A DNA stretch of 38,116 bases, taken from NCBI GenBank assembly GCA_013265495.1, contig MU057584.1:908608-946723 (forward strand). The letters are read 5' to 3'. Below, in pieces: positions 26,573-38,116 of this stretch. The stretch comes from Vicugna vicugna (taxonomy: Eukaryota). The position numbers were made by a program, and so were the translations under genes. How positions within the stretch are numbered: the stretch's first letter is position 1; the number at the start of each line of letters is the position of its first letter. Under the pieces are notes generated by a model. It was given only the letters and a program-made list of their open reading frames with translations, was not told the origin of the DNA and did no database searches.

Positions 26573-27798
26573 TATAAAACATTTACAGTCTAAAACATAT
26601 ATACATATAGAATTCAGAAGTCATAGAACTCATACAAACCCCCTTCAGTGGCTCAGTTGGTTGGCAGGGGGTAGGTGAGGTAGGTAGCTCTGCTTGGTGG
26701 AATACTCCATTTGGTTGGAGGTAGGAAAATTCAGGGGTGAGGGGCAGGTGGTCCCACTAGAGGAAGCCTTTGCATGAAGGAGGGAGGTGTGTACTGGGTG
26801 TCCAGGCCAAAGGCAAGAAAGGGGAATCCCTGAGTACTCTGAAGAGCAGATTTGGATGGAAGATAGGGCTTGTGACAATGACCCATGTAGCAGGGGGACA
26901 GCTGGGTCCCCATGAGGGCAGCAGGGGAGGATGGTGGGAAGGTTTAGAACATTCAGACGGGTAAACAGGGTGCTGAGACAAAACACAAAATGGTTCAGCC
27001 CAAGACAGGGCCAATGTTCCCACTCTAAAGGGCCACAGAACATTGGGGGGCGGTCAGTCTGGTGGAACTACACTGGAAGACACTGCGTGTCGGACTAAAA
27101 GCCTGTATATGTGTGGAAGGAGGTTCTGTTGGAATGATCCACTTACGGAGGGGAGGACCCCAGTGAAGGTACCAATGGACTACAGATGGGAGCCACAGGG
27201 TGACTCGCTGGAGCTGATGCACTCCAAGATCCGTCCTTCTATTCCCTGTCCCCAACAAAAGAGTGAAGTAGATGGAAGGTGGTGGGGGTGGTCAAGTCCA
27301 TCAGAAGTTTCTGCATTTTCATTACAATGGTCTGTACCAGTGAAGAAGGGGGAAGCTGTCCTGGTGTAATGGATGAGGTCCCGGGGAAAAGATCACTCCT
27401 CAGAAAAGTTGGAAGTGTGAGTGACAAAATGAGAAATGGTCCATGTGTCCTGCTAGCCCTCCCAGTGGTGGGTGGGTGGGGTCCGATGAAAGACACTGCT
27501 TTTCCATTCCAAAGTGCTAAACCAGTGGATGGGGCGGGGGGCAGTTGGGGGGGCCTGGAAGGTTCCATAAGTGGATGGGGGAGTCCCAGCAAAAGGTACC
27601 CCTCACTGGGCAAGTTAGTAGGGAGGTAACCGATAAGCCTAGTTGGATCAGCCCCAGTCCAGGATCACTTCTGCCCCTAAAGGGACCTAGTGGTATTAGC
27701 TGGGCGGGTTCAGGTAGGGACCCTGCGGACAGAAGGCCGTGTTGGACACATGGCGGCCCAGACAGCTGTCACTCACAAGACCAGGGCCCTACGGCTTC

Positions 27799-28181
27799 CT
27801 ATTCCTCCGGCGCGGGCGGCGGATCCAGGGCGCAGAGCTGGGCGCGCACCTCCCGCATCTGCGCCTGCAGCTCCTCCAGGGCGCCCCGCGGCGGCGCCGC
27901 CTGCACCTGCGCCTGCAGGGCCTCGAGCGCCAGCGCCAAGTGGTCCACCTCGTCCCGCATCGCCGTCCAGGCGGCGCGCCGCTCCCCCTTCTTAAGACGC
28001 AGGTTCTTCTGGTGGCGCCAGTACTCCAGCACCAGGCAGCTGCAGGCCATGACGAAGATGGTGGCCTCGCCCAGCAGCTCGGCGCCCAGCTCAGCAGCCG
28101 CCTCCTCGTTCAGCGGCTTGACGGATTCGGCATTGAAGCCCATGAGGCGCATCTTGGTCCGCATCTCCATCCAGTGGTACA
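27799..28181 (-). CDS. OPA3: OPA3 distal terminal coding exon (OPA3B-type); exon 1 lies outside the window
   Basis: CAG acceptor at 28184-28182, phase 1, then [15 protein letters not shown]...[22 protein letters not shown]...LEYWRHQ...[11 protein letters not shown]; tail-to-tail with VASP as in human. Confidence 0.93.
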
Positions 28182-29049
28182 CTGCCGGGGGAGAGAGGGG
28201 TCAGGGATCTTTGCTGGGGATTGCAAGCCCAGTCCCTCGACGCCTCGGCGTCTGGATCAGAGCACTGGGGACGCGGCAGCCAGAATCGCGGGCGCTGGGG
28301 ACTGGGCGCCATAACCAAGACCCTCGTCGGGCCTGACACGCGGAATGCCGAATTAATTACTGGGCCAGGGGTAGCCCGGAGGGCATCTTTTGAAAACGTC
28401 CAGAAAATTCTGGTTAGCGGCCAGGGATGAGAAGGATTGCCCTAGAGGGGAGGTCCAGTGTGGGGACCGCTCTTCTAGAGGGGAGGGTCACAATCCAGAG
28501 CAGGTATAAAGCTTGCCCCCTCGCCCCTCTCACAGCCGACCAGCCAGGCCCGTCCTCAAGTGCGTTCACTGTGGGGTTTGGGGCTTTGGAAGGAGCACAG
28601 GGCTGGAGCGCTGCTGCTCTGATGCCAACTCCTTCTTTACCTAATCACTTATTCATGAGAACAAGGATTATCAGCATTGTTTGTCATCATTTGTAGGCAC
28701 AGCATAAACATAGAGCTGAGGATGAAACCTGATTCACTGCAGTAATAATTAATATTCATCCACTGATACACGAACTGATGGGAATAATCTGCCTCCTTGG
28801 GGTCATTAAGGGATGAATTTCTGAAAACATTTGATACTTGACCCCTTCCAGCCATCCTCCACAACAGCTGGGCTGATGGAAGTACCTTCCTTTAAATTAG
28901 AAGAATAACAGATACACCTGGCGGGATTACTTAGACTATAGAGGCGGGTATACTGAGAGACAGACGTCCGTCTTTCCACCTCCAGCTTTAGTCCTATTTC
29001 TCAAAGCTTAACCACTTTTGATCTTTTTTCTGTTAATATTTGTTAAACA

Positions 29050-30040: not shown

Positions 30041-30150
30041 AAGCGTGTACCTAATGAGCATAAGGTACTGGGTTCAATCCCCAACACCTCCATTAAAAAT
30101 GAGTAAATAAAAAAACTTCGATTACCTCCCCCAAAATAAAATAAATAAAT
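30041..30150 (+). mobile_element. 5'-truncated tRNA-derived SINE (camelid Vic-1-like)
   Basis: B-box ggttcaatcc, then aaataa tail and attacctccccc end motif. Confidence 0.75.
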
Positions 30151-30163
30151 ATATACAATTTTT

Positions 30164-30280
30164 AGGGAGAAGGTATAGCTCAAGTGGTAGAGTGCAGACT
30201 TAGTATCCACAAGGTCCTGGGTTCAATACCCAGAACTTCCTCTAAAAATAAATAAATAAACCAACTACCAACCCCCCTCA
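30164..30280 (+). mobile_element. tRNA-derived SINE (camelid Vic-1-like)
   Basis: A-box tagctcaagtgg, B-box ggttcaatacc, (aaat)n tail. Confidence 0.85.
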
Positions 30281-30573
30281 AATTGTGCAGTTGGCTAATT
30301 TAAAATCACAACCCTCTACATCTTGTATGGGTCTTTCAGAGTGGCCCGATCTGAGTCATCTCATTAGCAATAACAGATACACCTACCATTAGGAATGAAG
30401 AATTTTGACTGTGCCTTAGAAATTGCGAAAACGCCTAGATGTATTCTTAACCAATAAAGGAGTTACTTGAGACATCAGCATCTAGCGCTGACTGGTGATT
30501 GACTCTGAAGATGGTGGTCAGTTTCAATCTCCTACCTGTCCAGTCTTCCGCAAGTGCTGCTGGCCTCCGGGAC

Positions 30574-32904
30574 ATGCGCCGACGCCAGCTGGAACCCAGG
30601 ACCAGTGCCAGTTGGAAGTCCCGATTCCTTCTCTTATCAGGTACAGGGCTTGCCTCACCCTCCTCCTCTGGCCCAGCTCCCCAACCCTCACGTCTCTCTC
30701 CCCTGCAGCTCTCTTCCTCCTGCTGTTCCCACTCGTGCCCGGATGGCCCCAAGACTCCAAAGGTGAGCGGGAGCATGGGGGACAGGGCACTGTGAGCCCT
30801 CTAGGGTGGCCGGGAGGCAGTGAGGGGCTCAACTCCCACCTCTACGCTCCTGCTCAGCTTAAATGTCAGCATGAGTGCAGAATTCTGACCCACCTCCCAC
30901 ACCCAGGTTCTGAGATGGCCTCTGGAGGATCCCCCATGCCAGCCCCTTGCGCTGAATGTGGGTGCTGGGGGTGGGGGAGTGCCAGAAATGGGGTGTCTGC
31001 TGAGCTGGGAAGGAGAAGGGCAGTGATCGGCCAAGTCAAGAGCCAAAGTCGAGTACCACCCCCCACATACCCAGCTGGGGAGATTTTGTATTATCCCTTA
31101 TTTTTTTTTCTCGGGGCAGCGTGGGGAGAGGTAATTAGGTTTGCTTGTTTATTAGAGGAGGTAACGGAATTGAACCCAGGACCTCGTGTGATGCTCTGCC
31201 ACTGAGCTATACTCTCCCCCCATCCCTTATTTCAACCTCACTACCTGACAGCCAGATTCTGTCTGGGTGATATGCCCATGAAGCAGACAGTCCCATTTTA
31301 GAGATGGACAAAGTGTGGCTCAGAGGGGCACAGTTACTTACCTGAGGTGAGGGGGAGAGTGGGGCTTAAACCCTGACCCAGTGATGTGAGTTTCAGCCCT
31401 AAAATCAGGTAAGTGCAGCCATGGCGTGAGGGACAGAATGCGGGAAAGGAGCCATAGGAGGCACGATCAGCTGAGGACTCTTCTGATGTGAGGAAGGTGG
31501 TGAGGAATGTGGTGCCACAATTCACCTGGGACAATGTGAGGCAAGAACAGCTGGGTGTGGACCTGCATCTCCTTGCCCCTGAAACTTTGCTAGCCTCCCT
31601 GCCCCACCCACCGACCTTGGACATGGTATGTTTGTTGAAAGATGCTGACCTCATGCCTACCCAGCCCAACCTGCTCCCCCTCGGGTGACATTTGGGGCTG
31701 GTGCTCCTCACACCCTTAGTGACCTCACCCAGCATCAGCCTGATCATTTGGCCAGGCCGATGTGTGGACGGGGCCACCTCACTGTCCAGTTCTCTTTCTA
31801 GAGCCTGAGTGAGGCTGATCATTGTCTTGTGTGACCACTGGCTATCTGCACTTCATCAGCTGTGACCGGGGTGCCCAAAGTGAGTGGCTGGCAACCTTGC
31901 CCACAGGATAGGAGCTCACTGAGCGCCTGAAAGCTCAGCACAGATCCTACCCCCTGGGCCAAGAAGAAGGCTGATGAGAAGGCAGCCAGAGCAGAGGGGC
32001 ATGACTGCTTTGGGGACAGAGGCCAACTGGCCATCGGACTTAAGTGCTGGGTAAAAGATGAATGGATGCAGGGAAATACAAATCAAAACCACAAGGAGAT
32101 AGCACGTCCATCCATTAGGGGATGGCTAGAATCAAAGAGTCATATAACAACTGTTAGCAGGATGTGGAGGAATCAGCACTCTGATATAGCTGATGGGAAT
32201 GGAAAATGGTACAATGTCCGGAACAGGCAGATCTAGAGACGGCAAGTAGATTGGTGGTTCCCCGGGGCTGGGGCTGCGGGGAGGTCGAAGAAAATGGAGA
32301 GCAAATGCCAGTGGACTGGGGGTTTCCTTTTAGAACATGTTCTAAAATTGATTGTGGGGATGATGGCACAACCCCACAAAAGTACTAAAAACCATTGACT
32401 CGTATGCTTTAAATGGGTGAATTGTACGATATGTGAATTCTATGCCAATGACAGTCTTAAAGTTAAAAAAAAAGAACGGATGCAAGAGAGATAAGGTACG
32501 GGAGAAGGGCAAGTGCCTAGGCCCTCCCGCTGAGCCCTGTCTGGCCCGCAGGGGAGGTGCTGGTGGTGAGAAAGGAGAAGTGGCGGCTCTGTGGCAGCAT
32601 GGCGCTGGACCCCAAGGATGGAAAGTGGAGCTGCTGCAAAGGTTTCTACCCTTTCCACCGCCCCACACAGAGGTGCTGCCAAACCTGGGGGAAGTTCATC
32701 ATCATCCCCATGGACCCGGAGAAGTCAGAGGCCGAAGACTGCAGGACATACACCCAGAAAACTCTAGGTAGGTCCTGGCCCCACTGCTAGCTTCCCTTTC
32801 TGCTCTAGGGGGTCTCAGAGACTCTGTTCTCTCCTTCCTTCCCAGGAGCTCTGCCCTCCATGGAGGGGTTTGTCTGCTTCCAGACAGGGCGTCTGTGCCA
32901 ATAG
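30574..32904 (+). CDS. Putative small secreted cysteine-rich protein (IGFL-like). Exons 30574-30640, 30709-30762, 32552-32767, then 32846-32904 (or alternatively 35410-35417)
   Basis: Phase-1 GT-AG exon chain gives MRRRQLEPRTSASWKSRFLLLS|ALFLLLFPLVPGWPQDSK|GEVLVVRKEKWRLCGSMALDPKDGKWSCCKGFYPFHRPTQRCCQTWGKFIIIPMDPEKSEAEDCRTYTQKTL|GALPSMEGFVCFQTGRLCQ*. Signal-peptide-like N-terminus, even Cys count. No expression evidence. Confidence 0.6.
31104..31221 (-). mobile_element. tRNA-derived SINE (camelid Vic-1-like) with 11-bp TSD
   Basis: Antisense A/B boxes (ttgaacccagg; cactgagctatac); direct repeat atcccttattt at 31093-31103 and 31222-31232. Confidence 0.88.
32075..32472 (+). mobile_element. L1M(B)-like fragments
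   Basis: aatacaaatcaaaaccacaaggagat...ggatggctagaatcaaa...gttctaaaattgattgtggggatgatggcacaac...aaatgggtgaattgtacgatatgtgaatt, followed by an A tail. Confidence 0.8.
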
Positions 32905-33122
32905 CTTAGCTGCGTTCCAGTTCCCACTGTGTGACCTTGGACAACTGTCCTGCCCTCTCTGGGCCCAGTCTACCTGTCACCAAGTGACAGATACGCACAA
33001 GAACTTCTCAGCCAAACAGGGTGGGGTTGGGGCTTTCGTAGTCCCTCCCCACAGTTCCAGAAGTGATCCCTTCCCACAGTTCTGGAAGTGACAATTGTTT
33101 TTAAATATTACTTAAAAAAAAA

Positions 33123-33248
33123 TTTTGGGGGGCGGCAGGTAATTAGGTTCATTCATTCACTTATTTATTTAATGGAGGTGGTGGATATTAAACCCAGGGC
33201 CTCATGCATGCTAGGTATGTACTCTACCACTGAGCTATACCCTCCCCC
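33123..33248 (-). mobile_element. tRNA-derived SINE (camelid Vic-1-like)
   Basis: aggtaattagg...ttatttatttaatggagg...aaacccagggcctcatgcatgctaggtatgtactctaccactgagctataccctccccc. Confidence 0.88.
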
Positions 33249-36702: not shown

Positions 36703-36739
36703 AAGGAGATTCAAGGATTCAATGATATGATTCTTGACA

Positions 36740-37210
36740 ATGAGGCATCAAATCACACAGGTCAGAACAGCCACCACGGAAGAGTCCACAAATGATAAAT
36801 GCTGGAGAGGGTGTGGAGAGAAAGAACCCTTCTGTACTGTTGATGGGAATGTAATTTGGTGCAGCCACTATGAAAAACAATCTGGAGATTCCTTAAAAAA
36901 CTAAAAATAGATTTACCATACAATCCAGCAATCCCAGTCCTGGGCATATATCCAGAGGAAACTCTAATTCAAAAAGATACATGCACCCCAATAGTGCCTC
37001 ATAGCAGCACTATTTACAATAGCCAGGACATGGAAGCAAAGCAACACACAAGGGAATACTATTCAGCCATAAAAAAGAATAAAATAATGCCATTTGCAGC
37101 AACACGGACGGACCTGGAGATTGTCATACTAAGTGAAATAAGCCAGAAACAGAAAGACAAATATCATGTGATATGACTTGTATGTGGAATCTAAAAATAG
37201 GACACAAATG
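36740..37210 (+). mobile_element. L1 ORF2 C-terminus and start of 3'UTR
   Basis: aaatgctggagagggtgtggagagaaagaaccct...ggtgcagccactatg...ccagcaatccc...atagcagcactatttacaatagccaggacatggaagca...ggacctggagattgtcatactaagtgaa. Confidence 0.92.
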
Positions 37211-38116
37211 GAGTGCTCCTTGATCTGCAGGTTCAGGTTCACAGAAGGCTGCAGCCAGGCTCAAAATGGAACCATGTTTTGCAACCAGTAAGACAATGAA
37301 GTTACTGTTTGGAGCCCTCAGGGCAGGATTCATCAAACTGAATATGCAATGGAAGCTGTCAAACAAGGTTCAGCCACAGCTGGTCTGAAATACAAAACCC
37401 TTGCAGTGTCGGTTGCATTGCAGAGAGCACAGTCAGAACTTGCAGCTCATCAGAAGAAAATTCTCCATGTTGATAACCATATTGGTGTCTCAATTGTGGA
37501 ACTTACTGCTGATGCTAGACTGTTACGTAATTTTATGTGCCAGGAGTGTTTGGATTCCAGATTTGTATTTGACAGACCTCTCCCTGAGTCTCGTCTTGTA
37601 TCTCTAATTGGAAGCAAAACTCAGATACCAACGCAACGATATGGCCGGAGACCATATGGTGTTGGGTTGCTTATTGCTGGTTATGATGATATGGGCCCTC
37701 ACATTTTCCAGACCTGTCTGTCTGCTAACTATTTTGACTGCAGAGCTATGTCTATTGGAGTCTGTTCTCAGTCAGCTTGTACTTACTTAGAGACACATGT
37801 CGGAGTTTATGGAGTACAATTTGAATGAACCGGTTAAGCATGGTCTGCGTGCCTTACAGAAGACACTTCTTGCAGAACAGGACCTAACTACAAAGAACGT
37901 TTCCATTGGAATTGTTGGTAAAGACTTTACGATTTATGGTGATGTTGACATGTCTCCATTCCTGGAAAGGCTTCAAGAAAGACCACAGAGAAAGGCACAG
38001 CCTGCTCAACCTGCTGATGAAGCTGCAGAAAAGGCTGTTGAACCAATGGAACATTAATGATAGACCAGTCTATATGTGGATTATCAAACATGTAAGAATG
38101 CAGGAACACATACTGA
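37211..38116 (+). pseudogene. PSMA1: Processed (intronless) pseudogene of proteasome subunit alpha type-1; former CDS 37274-38057
   Basis: [38 protein letters not shown]...[28 protein letters not shown]...[11 protein letters not shown]...[29 protein letters not shown] at codon 6 (37289-37291), frameshift near 37790-37796, no introns, UTR-like flanks. Confidence 0.96.

Follow-up and report, generated by a model that had tools for sequence, protein, structure and literature searches.

The IGFL proteins (Pfam PF14653; IGFL1-4 and mouse IGFL), the ligands of IGFLR1, are small, secreted and cysteine-rich. In PMC3099712, they are described as having eleven regularly spaced cysteines and as being very divergent, with 21-38% identity between the mouse and human proteins. 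CC motifs are also found in the galaxin repeat (PF24748). The locus described here lies within a third system, OPA3, which has two alternative terminal exons and a mammal-specific alternative last exon that arose by duplication; statements on the OPA3 exons are taken from PMC3249181 and PMC3987911.

The DNA analyzed is a stretch of 38,116 nucleotides from Vicugna vicugna (contig MU057584.1, positions 908,608 to 946,723), referred to as the window. A sequence-only reading had proposed that it contains a multi-exon gene for a small cysteine-rich protein, and every element of that gene was found in place, with the splice sites and phases as proposed. Exons 30574-30640, 30709-30762, 32552-32767 and 32846-32904 join via GT/AG sites, all in phase 1, and the spliced frame is open over 131 codons, giving a 131-residue product with eight cysteines. 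The in-frame upstream ATG at 30511 that had been suggested as an alternative start is also present. The features are:

30511..30573, plus strand: optional upstream extension, in-frame, 21 codons from the ATG at 30511, where the Camelus ferus Gnomon models begin.
30574..30640, plus strand: coding part of exon 1, 67 nt, with ATG at 30574 and a GT donor, ending in phase 1; basic n-region and start of the hydrophobic core.
30709..30762, plus strand: exon 2, exactly 54 nt, phase 1-1, donor gtgagc; rest of the hydrophobic core, predicted cleavage region and first residues of the predicted mature protein.
30907..31047, plus strand: putative cassette exon of 141 nt, "2b", with phase 1-1, an open frame in the window and a weak gtcgag donor.
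32552..32767, plus strand: exon 3, 216 nt, phase 1-1, preceded by AG and followed by gtaggt; conserved cysteine-rich domain.
32846..32904, plus strand: exon 4, 59 nt including the TAG; short tail with two further cysteines, variable across lineages.
27937..28182, minus strand: OPA3 terminal exon beside VASP (exon 3 by position), Pfam OPA3 PF07047, 79.1 bits at C452:936544-936789.

Intron 1 is 68 nt long and ends in AG. The extension from 30511 begins the database proteins P0012, P0032 and P0115, and differs from the camel model at one of 21 residues. The open reading frame of the OPA3 terminal exon spans 27799-28200. A scan of the Vicugna genome found one intact copy of the gene in the whole genome. 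Twenty-four sequencing runs were listed, 18 of which cover part of the stretch, and one of these 18 was recorded as RNA (share 0.23); these shares are evidence of neither expression nor tissue.

Ten named mammals, namely camel, five bats, seal, arctic fox, wolf and donkey, have database proteins that contain the cysteine-rich exon, with identities of 49-96%; every one of these proteins is labelled "uncharacterized" or "hypothetical". A word search gave 15 relatives with E ≤0.01, comprising all ten of the near-length candidates and five of the six longer ones, while a profile search of 1.84 billion representatives returned 18 proteins at E ≤1e-3, all judged to be members of the same family, here called LOC116665673-like. 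Exon 3 of the window matches the camel protein at 96% identity and the 20 other members of the alignment (A2) at 49-89%, and has the cysteine pattern of the family, C-x13-CC-x12-CC-x20-C, with six cysteines, together with the surrounding motifs. The sequence-only reading had allowed that an uncharacterized-locus annotation might already exist, as proved to be the case: the relatives include LOC116665673 (Camelus ferus), LOC118706776 (Pipistrellus kuhlii), LOC132216732 (Myotis daubentonii), LOC106843761 (Equus asinus) and LOC144380324 (Halichoerus grypus). A literature search on the LOC numbers and on OPA3-intron or antisense genes found no papers. The relatives are computational gene models or open reading frames called on contigs, and the databases hold open frames only, so that intact copies are over-represented among them.

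The orthologues, XP_032341682-4 (LOC116665673, Camelus ferus), LOC118706776, LOC132216732, KAF6285869 (Myotis myotis), CAK7302432 (Vulpes lagopus) and XP_072630597 (Canis lupus baileyi), are computational models with neither a name nor a family. Their cysteine-rich exon is 72-96% identical to that of the window, and the signal exon and the exon 2-to-3 junction, in the models that include them, match those of the window. The camel isoforms depart from the window model by an additional cassette exon, and the reading frame of the seal models is disrupted.

The junctions in the relatives' proteins fall exactly on the splice sites of the window model. The exon 2-to-3 junction was seen as proposed in the bat models and in 25 short assembled contigs, and the same junction occurs in P0014, P0033, P0034, P0038 and P0051, all of which align to the exon edges of the window. 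Mapped onto the window, the relatives' proteins cover 30705-30767 for exon 2 and 32551-32769 for exon 3; P0013, P0014, P0038 and P0051 align to exon 2 at 30705-30773. The 25 contigs, which are represented by P0013 and P0017, are each no longer than 1365 nt, whereas in the window the unspliced interval between the ATG and the last base of exon 3 is 2194 nt, and they must therefore be spliced. Farther downstream, P0002 (camel) and P0006 (bat) jump 32768-32845 and land on exon 4, the acceptor of which is common to the canid and seal models, whose tails have lost the cysteines. All three Camelus ferus Gnomon isoforms have additional coding sequence inserted after exon 2 and before exon 3, which leaves the dominant camelid isoform uncertain. 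Exon "2b" is used only in these three isoforms and was not found in the bat models or in the P0013/P0017 contigs. The seal models translate exon 2 in a different frame, which probably reflects decay of the gene in some lineages.

The N-terminus of the spliced product resembles a signal peptide. By hydropathy, the hydrophobic core, about 15 residues long, is split across exons 1 and 2, as the sequence-only reading had described, and the 11-residue Kyte-Doolittle mean reaches 3.0 at residues 18-19. Small residues, V and G, occupy positions -3 and -1 of the predicted cleavage site, and there is no second hydrophobic stretch in the 131-residue product. At 17 residues, or 38 when counted from the ATG at 30511, the n-region is long. 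In P0045, from Glossophaga, the N-terminus is short, hydrophobic and of classical type.

The gene is nested antisense in OPA3, as had been claimed, and the host intron can now be specified as that between exons 2 and 3. OPA3 spans two contigs, with exons 1 and 2 on C9192 and exon 3 in the window, and the ends of the two contigs share a 94-nt overlap with 94.7% identity. The cysteine-rich exon and the OPA3 exon at 27937-28182 are on opposite strands, 4.4 kb apart. Given this host intron, the gene lies only within the transcript that joins exon 1 to exon 3. The position is the same in the wolf, where model P0047 starts antisense to the OPA3 exon and then splices into the cysteine-rich exon.

A second, decayed copy of the cysteine-rich exon was found on the minus strand at C9192:4385648-4385845, with one TGA and frameshifts. 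The relic precedes OPA3 exon 2 in the same order and orientation as the window gene precedes exon 3, and the two OPA3 terminal-exon regions are colinear, with 76.8% identity across 656 nt. Because this copy is placed and oriented relative to exon 2 as the gene is relative to exon 3, the event that gave rise to the mammal-specific OPA3 isoform most probably duplicated the gene and the OPA3 terminal exon together. The DNA similarity between the two cysteine-rich exons is marginal (44 nt at 79.5%; no match at word size 9), and no convincing signal exons of the decayed copy were found in C9192:4385000-4394000, where the best tblastn match had an E of 0.034 and the one DNA match was 27 nt long and pyrimidine-rich. 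The location of OPA3 on two contigs, that of the gene between exons 2 and 3, and that of a decayed copy before exon 2 are new here.

The Equus asinus protein LOC106843761 (P0043) and the C9192 relic share their cysteine pattern and domain with the window gene; compared with the window exon, P0043 is 60% identical, and the relic 44% over residues 17-53. The best single HSP of the relic was to P0043 (47.0 bits), as compared to 42.7 bits for P0013, 42.4 for P0044 and at most 36.2 for the other window-type proteins. In a midpoint-rooted tree, P0043 and P0044 fell outside the 18 other window-type rows, with support of 92/79 and 92/89. P0043 and the relic probably represent a paralogous lineage sited before OPA3 exon 2.

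The exon 3 domain, as modelled by AF2 (pLDDT 75.2, pTM 0.57), has two β-hairpins and then a C-terminal helix, with one CC pair on each hairpin. Neither this model nor the family profile led to a known structure: Foldseek against the PDB gave no match at E ≤0.001 (best E 2), VIA-align against 48,161 chains gave none at Z ≥2, and the profile of A2 had no match among PDB sequences at E ≤10. A model of the Vicugna IGFL1 exon, built from 39 sequences, was too poor for a fold comparison (pLDDT 47.9). Membership in the galaxin repeats, which the sequence-only reading had raised along with IGFL, was not borne out by PF24748, which matched none of the 22 family members at E ≤10 (membership threshold 28 bits) and had three matches in the Vicugna genome, none of them at the window. 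A galaxin-like cluster did come top in a language-model feature search with the domain of P0013, but its score of 0.76, the only lead obtained, falls within the range of shuffled proteins; the language-model atlas gave no usable match with P0014. Two other Pfam matches, each to one of the 22 members, were taken as chance, DUF2914 (E 0.011, 15.9 bits, below the cut-off of 23.6) and R3H-assoc (E 0.18). No structural or sequence match of known function was obtained, so that a ligand role can be proposed by analogy only.

The gene might instead be a divergent member or a sister lineage of IGFL, derived from the neighboring cluster, that lost five cysteines and kept the fold and perhaps the binding to a TNFR-like receptor, an explanation that we consider unlikely. 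The likeness in gene structure noted in the sequence-only reading is real: Vicugna IGFL1 has the same 5' architecture, a short phase-1 ATG exon, a 54-nt, phase 1-1 exon with the signal core, a single cysteine-rich exon and a short last exon, with lengths of 25/54/265 nt (L001) as compared to 67/54/216/59 nt in the window gene. Phase-1 introns are common after signal peptides, and thus only the exact 54 nt is unusual; this shared exon structure is a lead for distant kinship with IGFL, not proof of it. The two also have in common a short CG...P.Q.CC-like motif, and the only local alignments sit on the region of this IGFL motif (CG/..P.Q.CC). They share a chromosomal neighborhood as well, IGFL1 being about 0.34 Mb away on the contig with OPA3 exons 1 and 2, and both genes are on one chromosome or scaffold in three other species, as judged by contigs of equal length and, in Cnephaeus, by nearby locus tags, although the window gene itself lies inside OPA3 and outside the IGFL cluster. 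The divergence of the IGFL proteins, as reported in PMC3099712, would also accommodate a remote relative. However, Pfam PF14653 matched neither the window exon nor any of the 22 family members at E ≤10 (membership threshold 25 bits), an IGFL scan of the Vicugna genome, in which 20 candidates were scored, gave 103 bits for the true IGFL1 and no match at the window, and IGFL was absent from the 18 hits of the family profile search. The hhalign comparison with 39 IGFL1 sequences gave a probability of 2.2-4.7% over 20-21 columns, with a score of 18.0 versus 11.7 ± 3.2 for column shuffles, a value that 8 of 200 shuffles reached and that a reversed control exceeded (20.6). Moreover, the window gene has six cysteines in exon 3, or eight with exon 4, as against the defining eleven, which are present in the Vicugna IGFL1 exon, and its exon 3 ends in phase 1 rather than in phase 2 as in IGFL1.

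Another reading, that the Vicugna locus is only transcribed noise or a gene being lost, with a frame that has not yet had time to break, and yields no functional protein, is very unlikely, even though several observations point that way. The closest relative, the Camelus ferus model, differs from the window at 3 of 72 positions in exon 3 and at 5 of 95 in the translated intron, so that the camel pair alone shows no constraint on exon 3, while the signal exons change fast, with 8 of 40 positions different, the predicted cleavage residues among them. In addition, the paralogue in the same genome is decayed, the seal models are disrupted, and the 3' exons vary between lineages. Against this, all four exons, their phases and their splice sites are intact, and all eight cysteines are kept. 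Across orders, the mean identity of exon 3 is 0.64, compared to 0.35 for the read-through just past its donor, and was higher for exon 3 in 27 of 28 pairs. The frame of the exon is kept across 22 sequences, with indels of at most one codon, and its cysteine columns are invariant or at least 90% conserved. That chance open frames and splice-like sites in an intron merely simulate a gene is hardly conceivable: beyond the general frequency of GT/AG sites, nothing speaks for it, and it is refuted by the relatives in ten named species and in many contigs with matching junctions.

The locus is probably a true gene, intact and protein-coding, that belongs to a mammalian family as yet without a name, encodes a secreted, disulfide-rich, ligand-like protein and was copied with an OPA3 exon. 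The gene, presumably expressed in Vicugna, would use four exons, perhaps five in camelids, to make a precursor of about 131 residues. Its predicted signal peptide, encoded partly by exon 1 and partly by exon 2, would send it along the secretory pathway. Once cut past the hydrophobic core, the precursor would yield a basic mini-protein of about 97 residues with a pI of about 8.7, in which the six invariant cysteines of exon 3 and the two of the tail could form three or four disulfides. Hormones, cytokines and host-defence factors are common among small secreted disulfide-rich proteins, and by analogy with these the mature protein most likely would act extracellularly, as a soluble ligand or a host-defence-type factor. 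The gene lies antisense in OPA3 between its two alternative terminal exons, and the second copy, placed before the other terminal exon, has since decayed. A broader proposal, which we regard as distinctly doubtful, is that a secreted ligand family arose inside OPA3 before the orders that carry it split, was duplicated together with the exon to give two paralogues that were kept or lost by lineage, and is a remote sister of IGFL that has the signal-exon architecture of that family and acts through a TNFR-like receptor.

A conserved protein of probably secreted type that has no name, Pfam family or literature is a candidate orphan ligand. The locus probably also illustrates the copying of a nested antisense gene together with a host exon, and its link to the duplication behind the mammal-specific alternative last exon of OPA3 would provide a means to date the gene. 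Apparently kept in some lineages and decayed in others, as in the seal models and in one of the two Vicugna copies, the family may serve as a useful case of the gain and loss of secreted factors by lineage.

Analysis of the window showed a coding gene that is both conserved and spliced; its product has a hydrophobic N-terminus and a framework of invariant Cys. Each exon and intron element proposed in the sequence-only reading was found where that reading had placed it.

Elements of the gene, antisense to OPA3 (the ATG and exons 1 to 4 were seen in the window sequence)
30574 (+), ATG of the gene
30574-30640 (+), exon 1, 67 nt
between exons 1 and 2 (+), intron 1, 68 nt, GT..AG
30709-30762 (+), exon 2, 54 nt
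30907-31047 (+), candidate cassette exon in intron 2, 141 nt, open and phase-compatible, with a weak donor
32552-32767 (+), exon 3, the Cys exon, 216 nt
32846-32904 (+), exon 4, closing with TAG

Every junction was in phase 1 and the spliced product was 131 aa long. The hydrophobic core, about 15 residues long (11-residue Kyte-Doolittle mean up to 3.0), was divided over exon 1 and the 54-nt exon 2, and was followed by a predicted cleavage position with V at -3 and G at -1; the window sequence thus confirmed the phase 1 joins, the length of exon 2 and the split core. If cleaved at this site, the mature form would have 97 aa, 8 Cys, a pI of 8.7 and no N-glycosylation sequons. The upstream in-frame ATG at 30511 was also confirmed and would, if used, add 21 residues.

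At E<=0.01, a search with the exon 3 peptide (P0001) returned all 10 near-length candidates and 5 of the 6 longer ones, and the family profile, run against 1.84 billion representatives, matched 18 proteins at E<=1e-3, 16 of them at E<=1e-10. Judged by reading the sequences, all 18 belong to one family. The named relatives were from Camelus ferus (LOC116665673 and an older hypothetical protein), Pipistrellus kuhlii (LOC118706776 and two Bat1K models), Myotis myotis, Myotis daubentonii (LOC132216732), Cnephaeus nilssonii, Glossophaga mutica, Halichoerus grypus (LOC144380324), Vulpes lagopus, Canis lupus baileyi and Equus asinus (LOC106843761), and every one was labelled uncharacterized or hypothetical. 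No literature was found for the LOC numbers of the relatives or for a gene antisense to or within the OPA3 intron. The gene, which had been described as hidden, is therefore not wholly so: it has neither a family assignment nor literature that we could find, but the locus is already present in several genomes as unnamed computational models.

The proposed splice from exon 2 to exon 3 was present in the proteins P0013 and P0017, which jointly represent 25 contigs, none longer than 1365 nt. These contigs must be spliced, since the corresponding span in the window takes 2194 nt. The identical junction occurred in the models of P. kuhlii and M. myotis and in the X2 model of M. daubentonii, and the relatives with this splice, when mapped onto the window, had their breaks precisely at the exon borders predicted. 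Two proteins, P0002 of the camel and P0006 of a bat, jumped 32768-32845 to land on exon 4. The six Cys of exon 3 were invariant or at least 90% conserved across the family. In a rough control with eight sequences whose ORF continued past the exon 3 donor, the mean identity was 0.64 in exon 3 and 0.35 in the next 40 residues, with exon 3 higher in 27 of 28 pairs, which are not independent; P0048, which lacks the cutting motif, and P0004 and P0007, with tails shorter than 15 aa, were left out. By these comparisons, the gene is real and conserved.

The C. ferus model differed from the window at 3 of 72 positions in exon 3 and at 5 of 95 in the translated intron, so that this pair is uninformative about constraint. 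In the signal exons (30574-30762), 8 of 40 residues differed, those at the predicted cleavage position included, and the N-terminus is therefore unusually fast-changing, also at the predicted cleavage site. All three C. ferus Gnomon isoforms carried additional coding sequence after exon 2 and before exon 3, matched by the segment 30907-31047, which would add 47 residues including 3 Cys. This cassette was not found in the bat models or the spliced contigs. Inserted cassettes look lineage-specific, because the insert in one M. daubentonii isoform was different from and unrelated to that of the camel.

The 3' end was also variable. Both exon 4 Cys were kept in the camel, one bat and two other sequences and were lost in the canid and seal models, while P0013 and the remaining bat models had other last exons. 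The exon 4 stop codon and the sequence that follows (about 32880-33010, +) may belong to a MIR element; if so, exonised MIR sequence may underlie the differing 3' ends among mammals. In the seal models exon 2 was read in a different frame and the Cys exon was entered half-way, which suggests decay of the gene in that lineage. A long open frame at 27521-28336 (+) ran antisense to the OPA3 exon, and the N-terminus of the wolf model XP_072630597 (P0047) was its equivalent, joined by splicing to the latter half of the Cys exon; transcription of the gene in canids may consequently begin within or beyond the OPA3 exon.

The sequence-only reading had likened the product to IGFL and galaxin-repeat proteins. 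None of the 22 family members matched Pfam IGFL (PF14653) or Galaxin_repeat (PF24748) at E<=10. When the entire genome was scanned, PF14653 found the true IGFL1 exon (C9192:4046321-4046560, 103 bits) and did not match the window, and none of the three PF24748 matches lay in the window. A galaxin-repeat assignment is not supported. BLASTP of the window exon against the IGFL1 exon aligned 9 and 13 residues (E 0.056 and 0.16). Alignment of the 22 members with 39 IGFL1 orthologues by hhalign covered 20-21 columns at a probability of 2.2-4.7%; against its score of 18.0, 200 column shuffles gave 11.7 +/- 3.2, with 8 of them attaining 18.0, and the reversed alignment gave 20.6. The AF2 model of exon 3 (pLDDT 75.2) had two beta-hairpins with one CC pair each and a helix after them; neither it nor the family profile had a PDB match, and the AF2 model of IGFL1 was too poor for a fold comparison. 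Passages of PMC3099712 define the IGFL family by 11 regularly spaced Cys, a pattern that the window gene does not have.

The likeness in architecture was the one resemblance borne out, by IGFL1 of the same genome.

Coding exons of IGFL1 (locus L001, G000:C9192:4044821-4048060; positions within the locus)
717-741, exon 1, 25 nt, closing in phase 1
1314-1367, exon 2, 54 nt, phase 1-1, with the signal core, as in exon 2 of the window gene
1481-1745, Cys exon, 265 nt, closing in phase 2 (phase 1 in window exon 3), followed by a short last exon

Because introns in phase 1 commonly follow signal peptides, the shared length of exactly 54 nt is the only notable point. A distant common ancestry with IGFL is improbable, and the window gene is not classed as IGFL. 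As a separate point, the 5' end of the C. ferus RefSeq IGFL1 protein model (P0062) may be wrongly annotated, because exon 2 is read there in another frame than in the IGFL1 described here.

The mammalian window makes up the final 38 kb of contig C452 (C452:908608-946723), which terminates at 946723, in an assembly of 2.03 Gb; ORFs were read stop-to-stop, and among named relatives those from C. ferus came closest to the proteins found (96% identity). From the ORF translations, we take the neighbours to be an RTN2-like exon, a PPM1N-like exon, VASP exons (+) and an OPA3 exon (-, ORF 27799-28200). An open frame without introns, 178 codons long, at 37292-37828 (+), which by its translation we take to resemble proteasome subunit alpha type 1 (PSMA1), is probably a processed pseudogene within the OPA3 intron. 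Heads of tRNA-derived SINEs at 33173-33244 (-), about 31134-31219 and about 30143-30264 matched one another and copies on contig C9192, one attaining the Rfam tRNA gathering score (29.7 bits), and L1-like fragments lay at about 32040-32480 and 36737-37197.

OPA3 exons with a match to Pfam OPA3 (PF07047)
C9192:4365462-4365581 (+), exon 1
C9192:4394069-4394311 (+), terminal-type exon, exon 2
window 27937-28182 (-), exon 3, so called from its position and slightly lower Pfam score (79.1 vs 86.8 bits)

Contig C9192 ends 9 kb past its terminal-type exon, and its last 94 nt (C9192:4403518-4403611) matched the last 93 nt of the window (38024-38116) in reverse at 94.7% identity. With OPA3 split across both, the two contigs are neighbours, and the gap between them could be closed. 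The order is therefore OPA3 exon 1, exon 2, contig break, window gene, exon 3, VASP. Exons 1 and 2 form a conserved OPA3 transcript and exons 1 and 3 a mammal-specific one, as stated in parts of PMC3249181 and PMC3987911. Placed between exons 2 and 3, the window gene is thus intronic only in the exon 1+3 transcript.

The only other match to the Cys exon in the genome was C9192:4385648-4385845 (-) (L010/L017; E was 0.06 for the window peptide as query and 5e-5 for the donkey protein), with one TGA and, read in three frames, a frameshifted remnant of the Cys-rich domain. This relic and the intact gene are both antisense to OPA3, the former 8.3 kb upstream of exon 2 and the latter 4.4 kb upstream of exon 3. 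The two OPA3 terminal-exon regions were colinear, sharing 76.8% identity over 656 nt, and had more colinear matches on either side. Since the copies are alike in place and orientation and the exon regions colinear, the simplest reading is that the nested gene was copied in the same duplication as the second OPA3 terminal exon. The best single HSPs of the relic were with P0043 (47.0 bits), P0013 (42.7) and P0044 (42.4), other window-type proteins giving at most 36.2, and the highest summed bits were with P0044 (67.4), P0009 (47.8), P0043 (47.0) and P0016 (46.5); by these scores the relic stands nearest to P0043 and P0044, the donkey-type proteins. In a midpoint-rooted tree of 21 rows, built without P0048 and with Glossophaga as a long branch, P0043 and P0044 fell outside the 18 window-type rows (support 92/79 and 92/89). 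The model of two paralogues, donkey-type and window-type, is moderately supported.

The precursor would enter the ER co-translationally, lose its signal by cleavage, form 3 or 4 disulfides and be secreted, to act outside the cell as a putative ligand or host-defence factor. The gene represents an orphan family of small proteins, predicted to be secreted and disulfide-rich and without a structural relative; its probable evolutionary tie to the duplication of the OPA3 exon gives it some interest.
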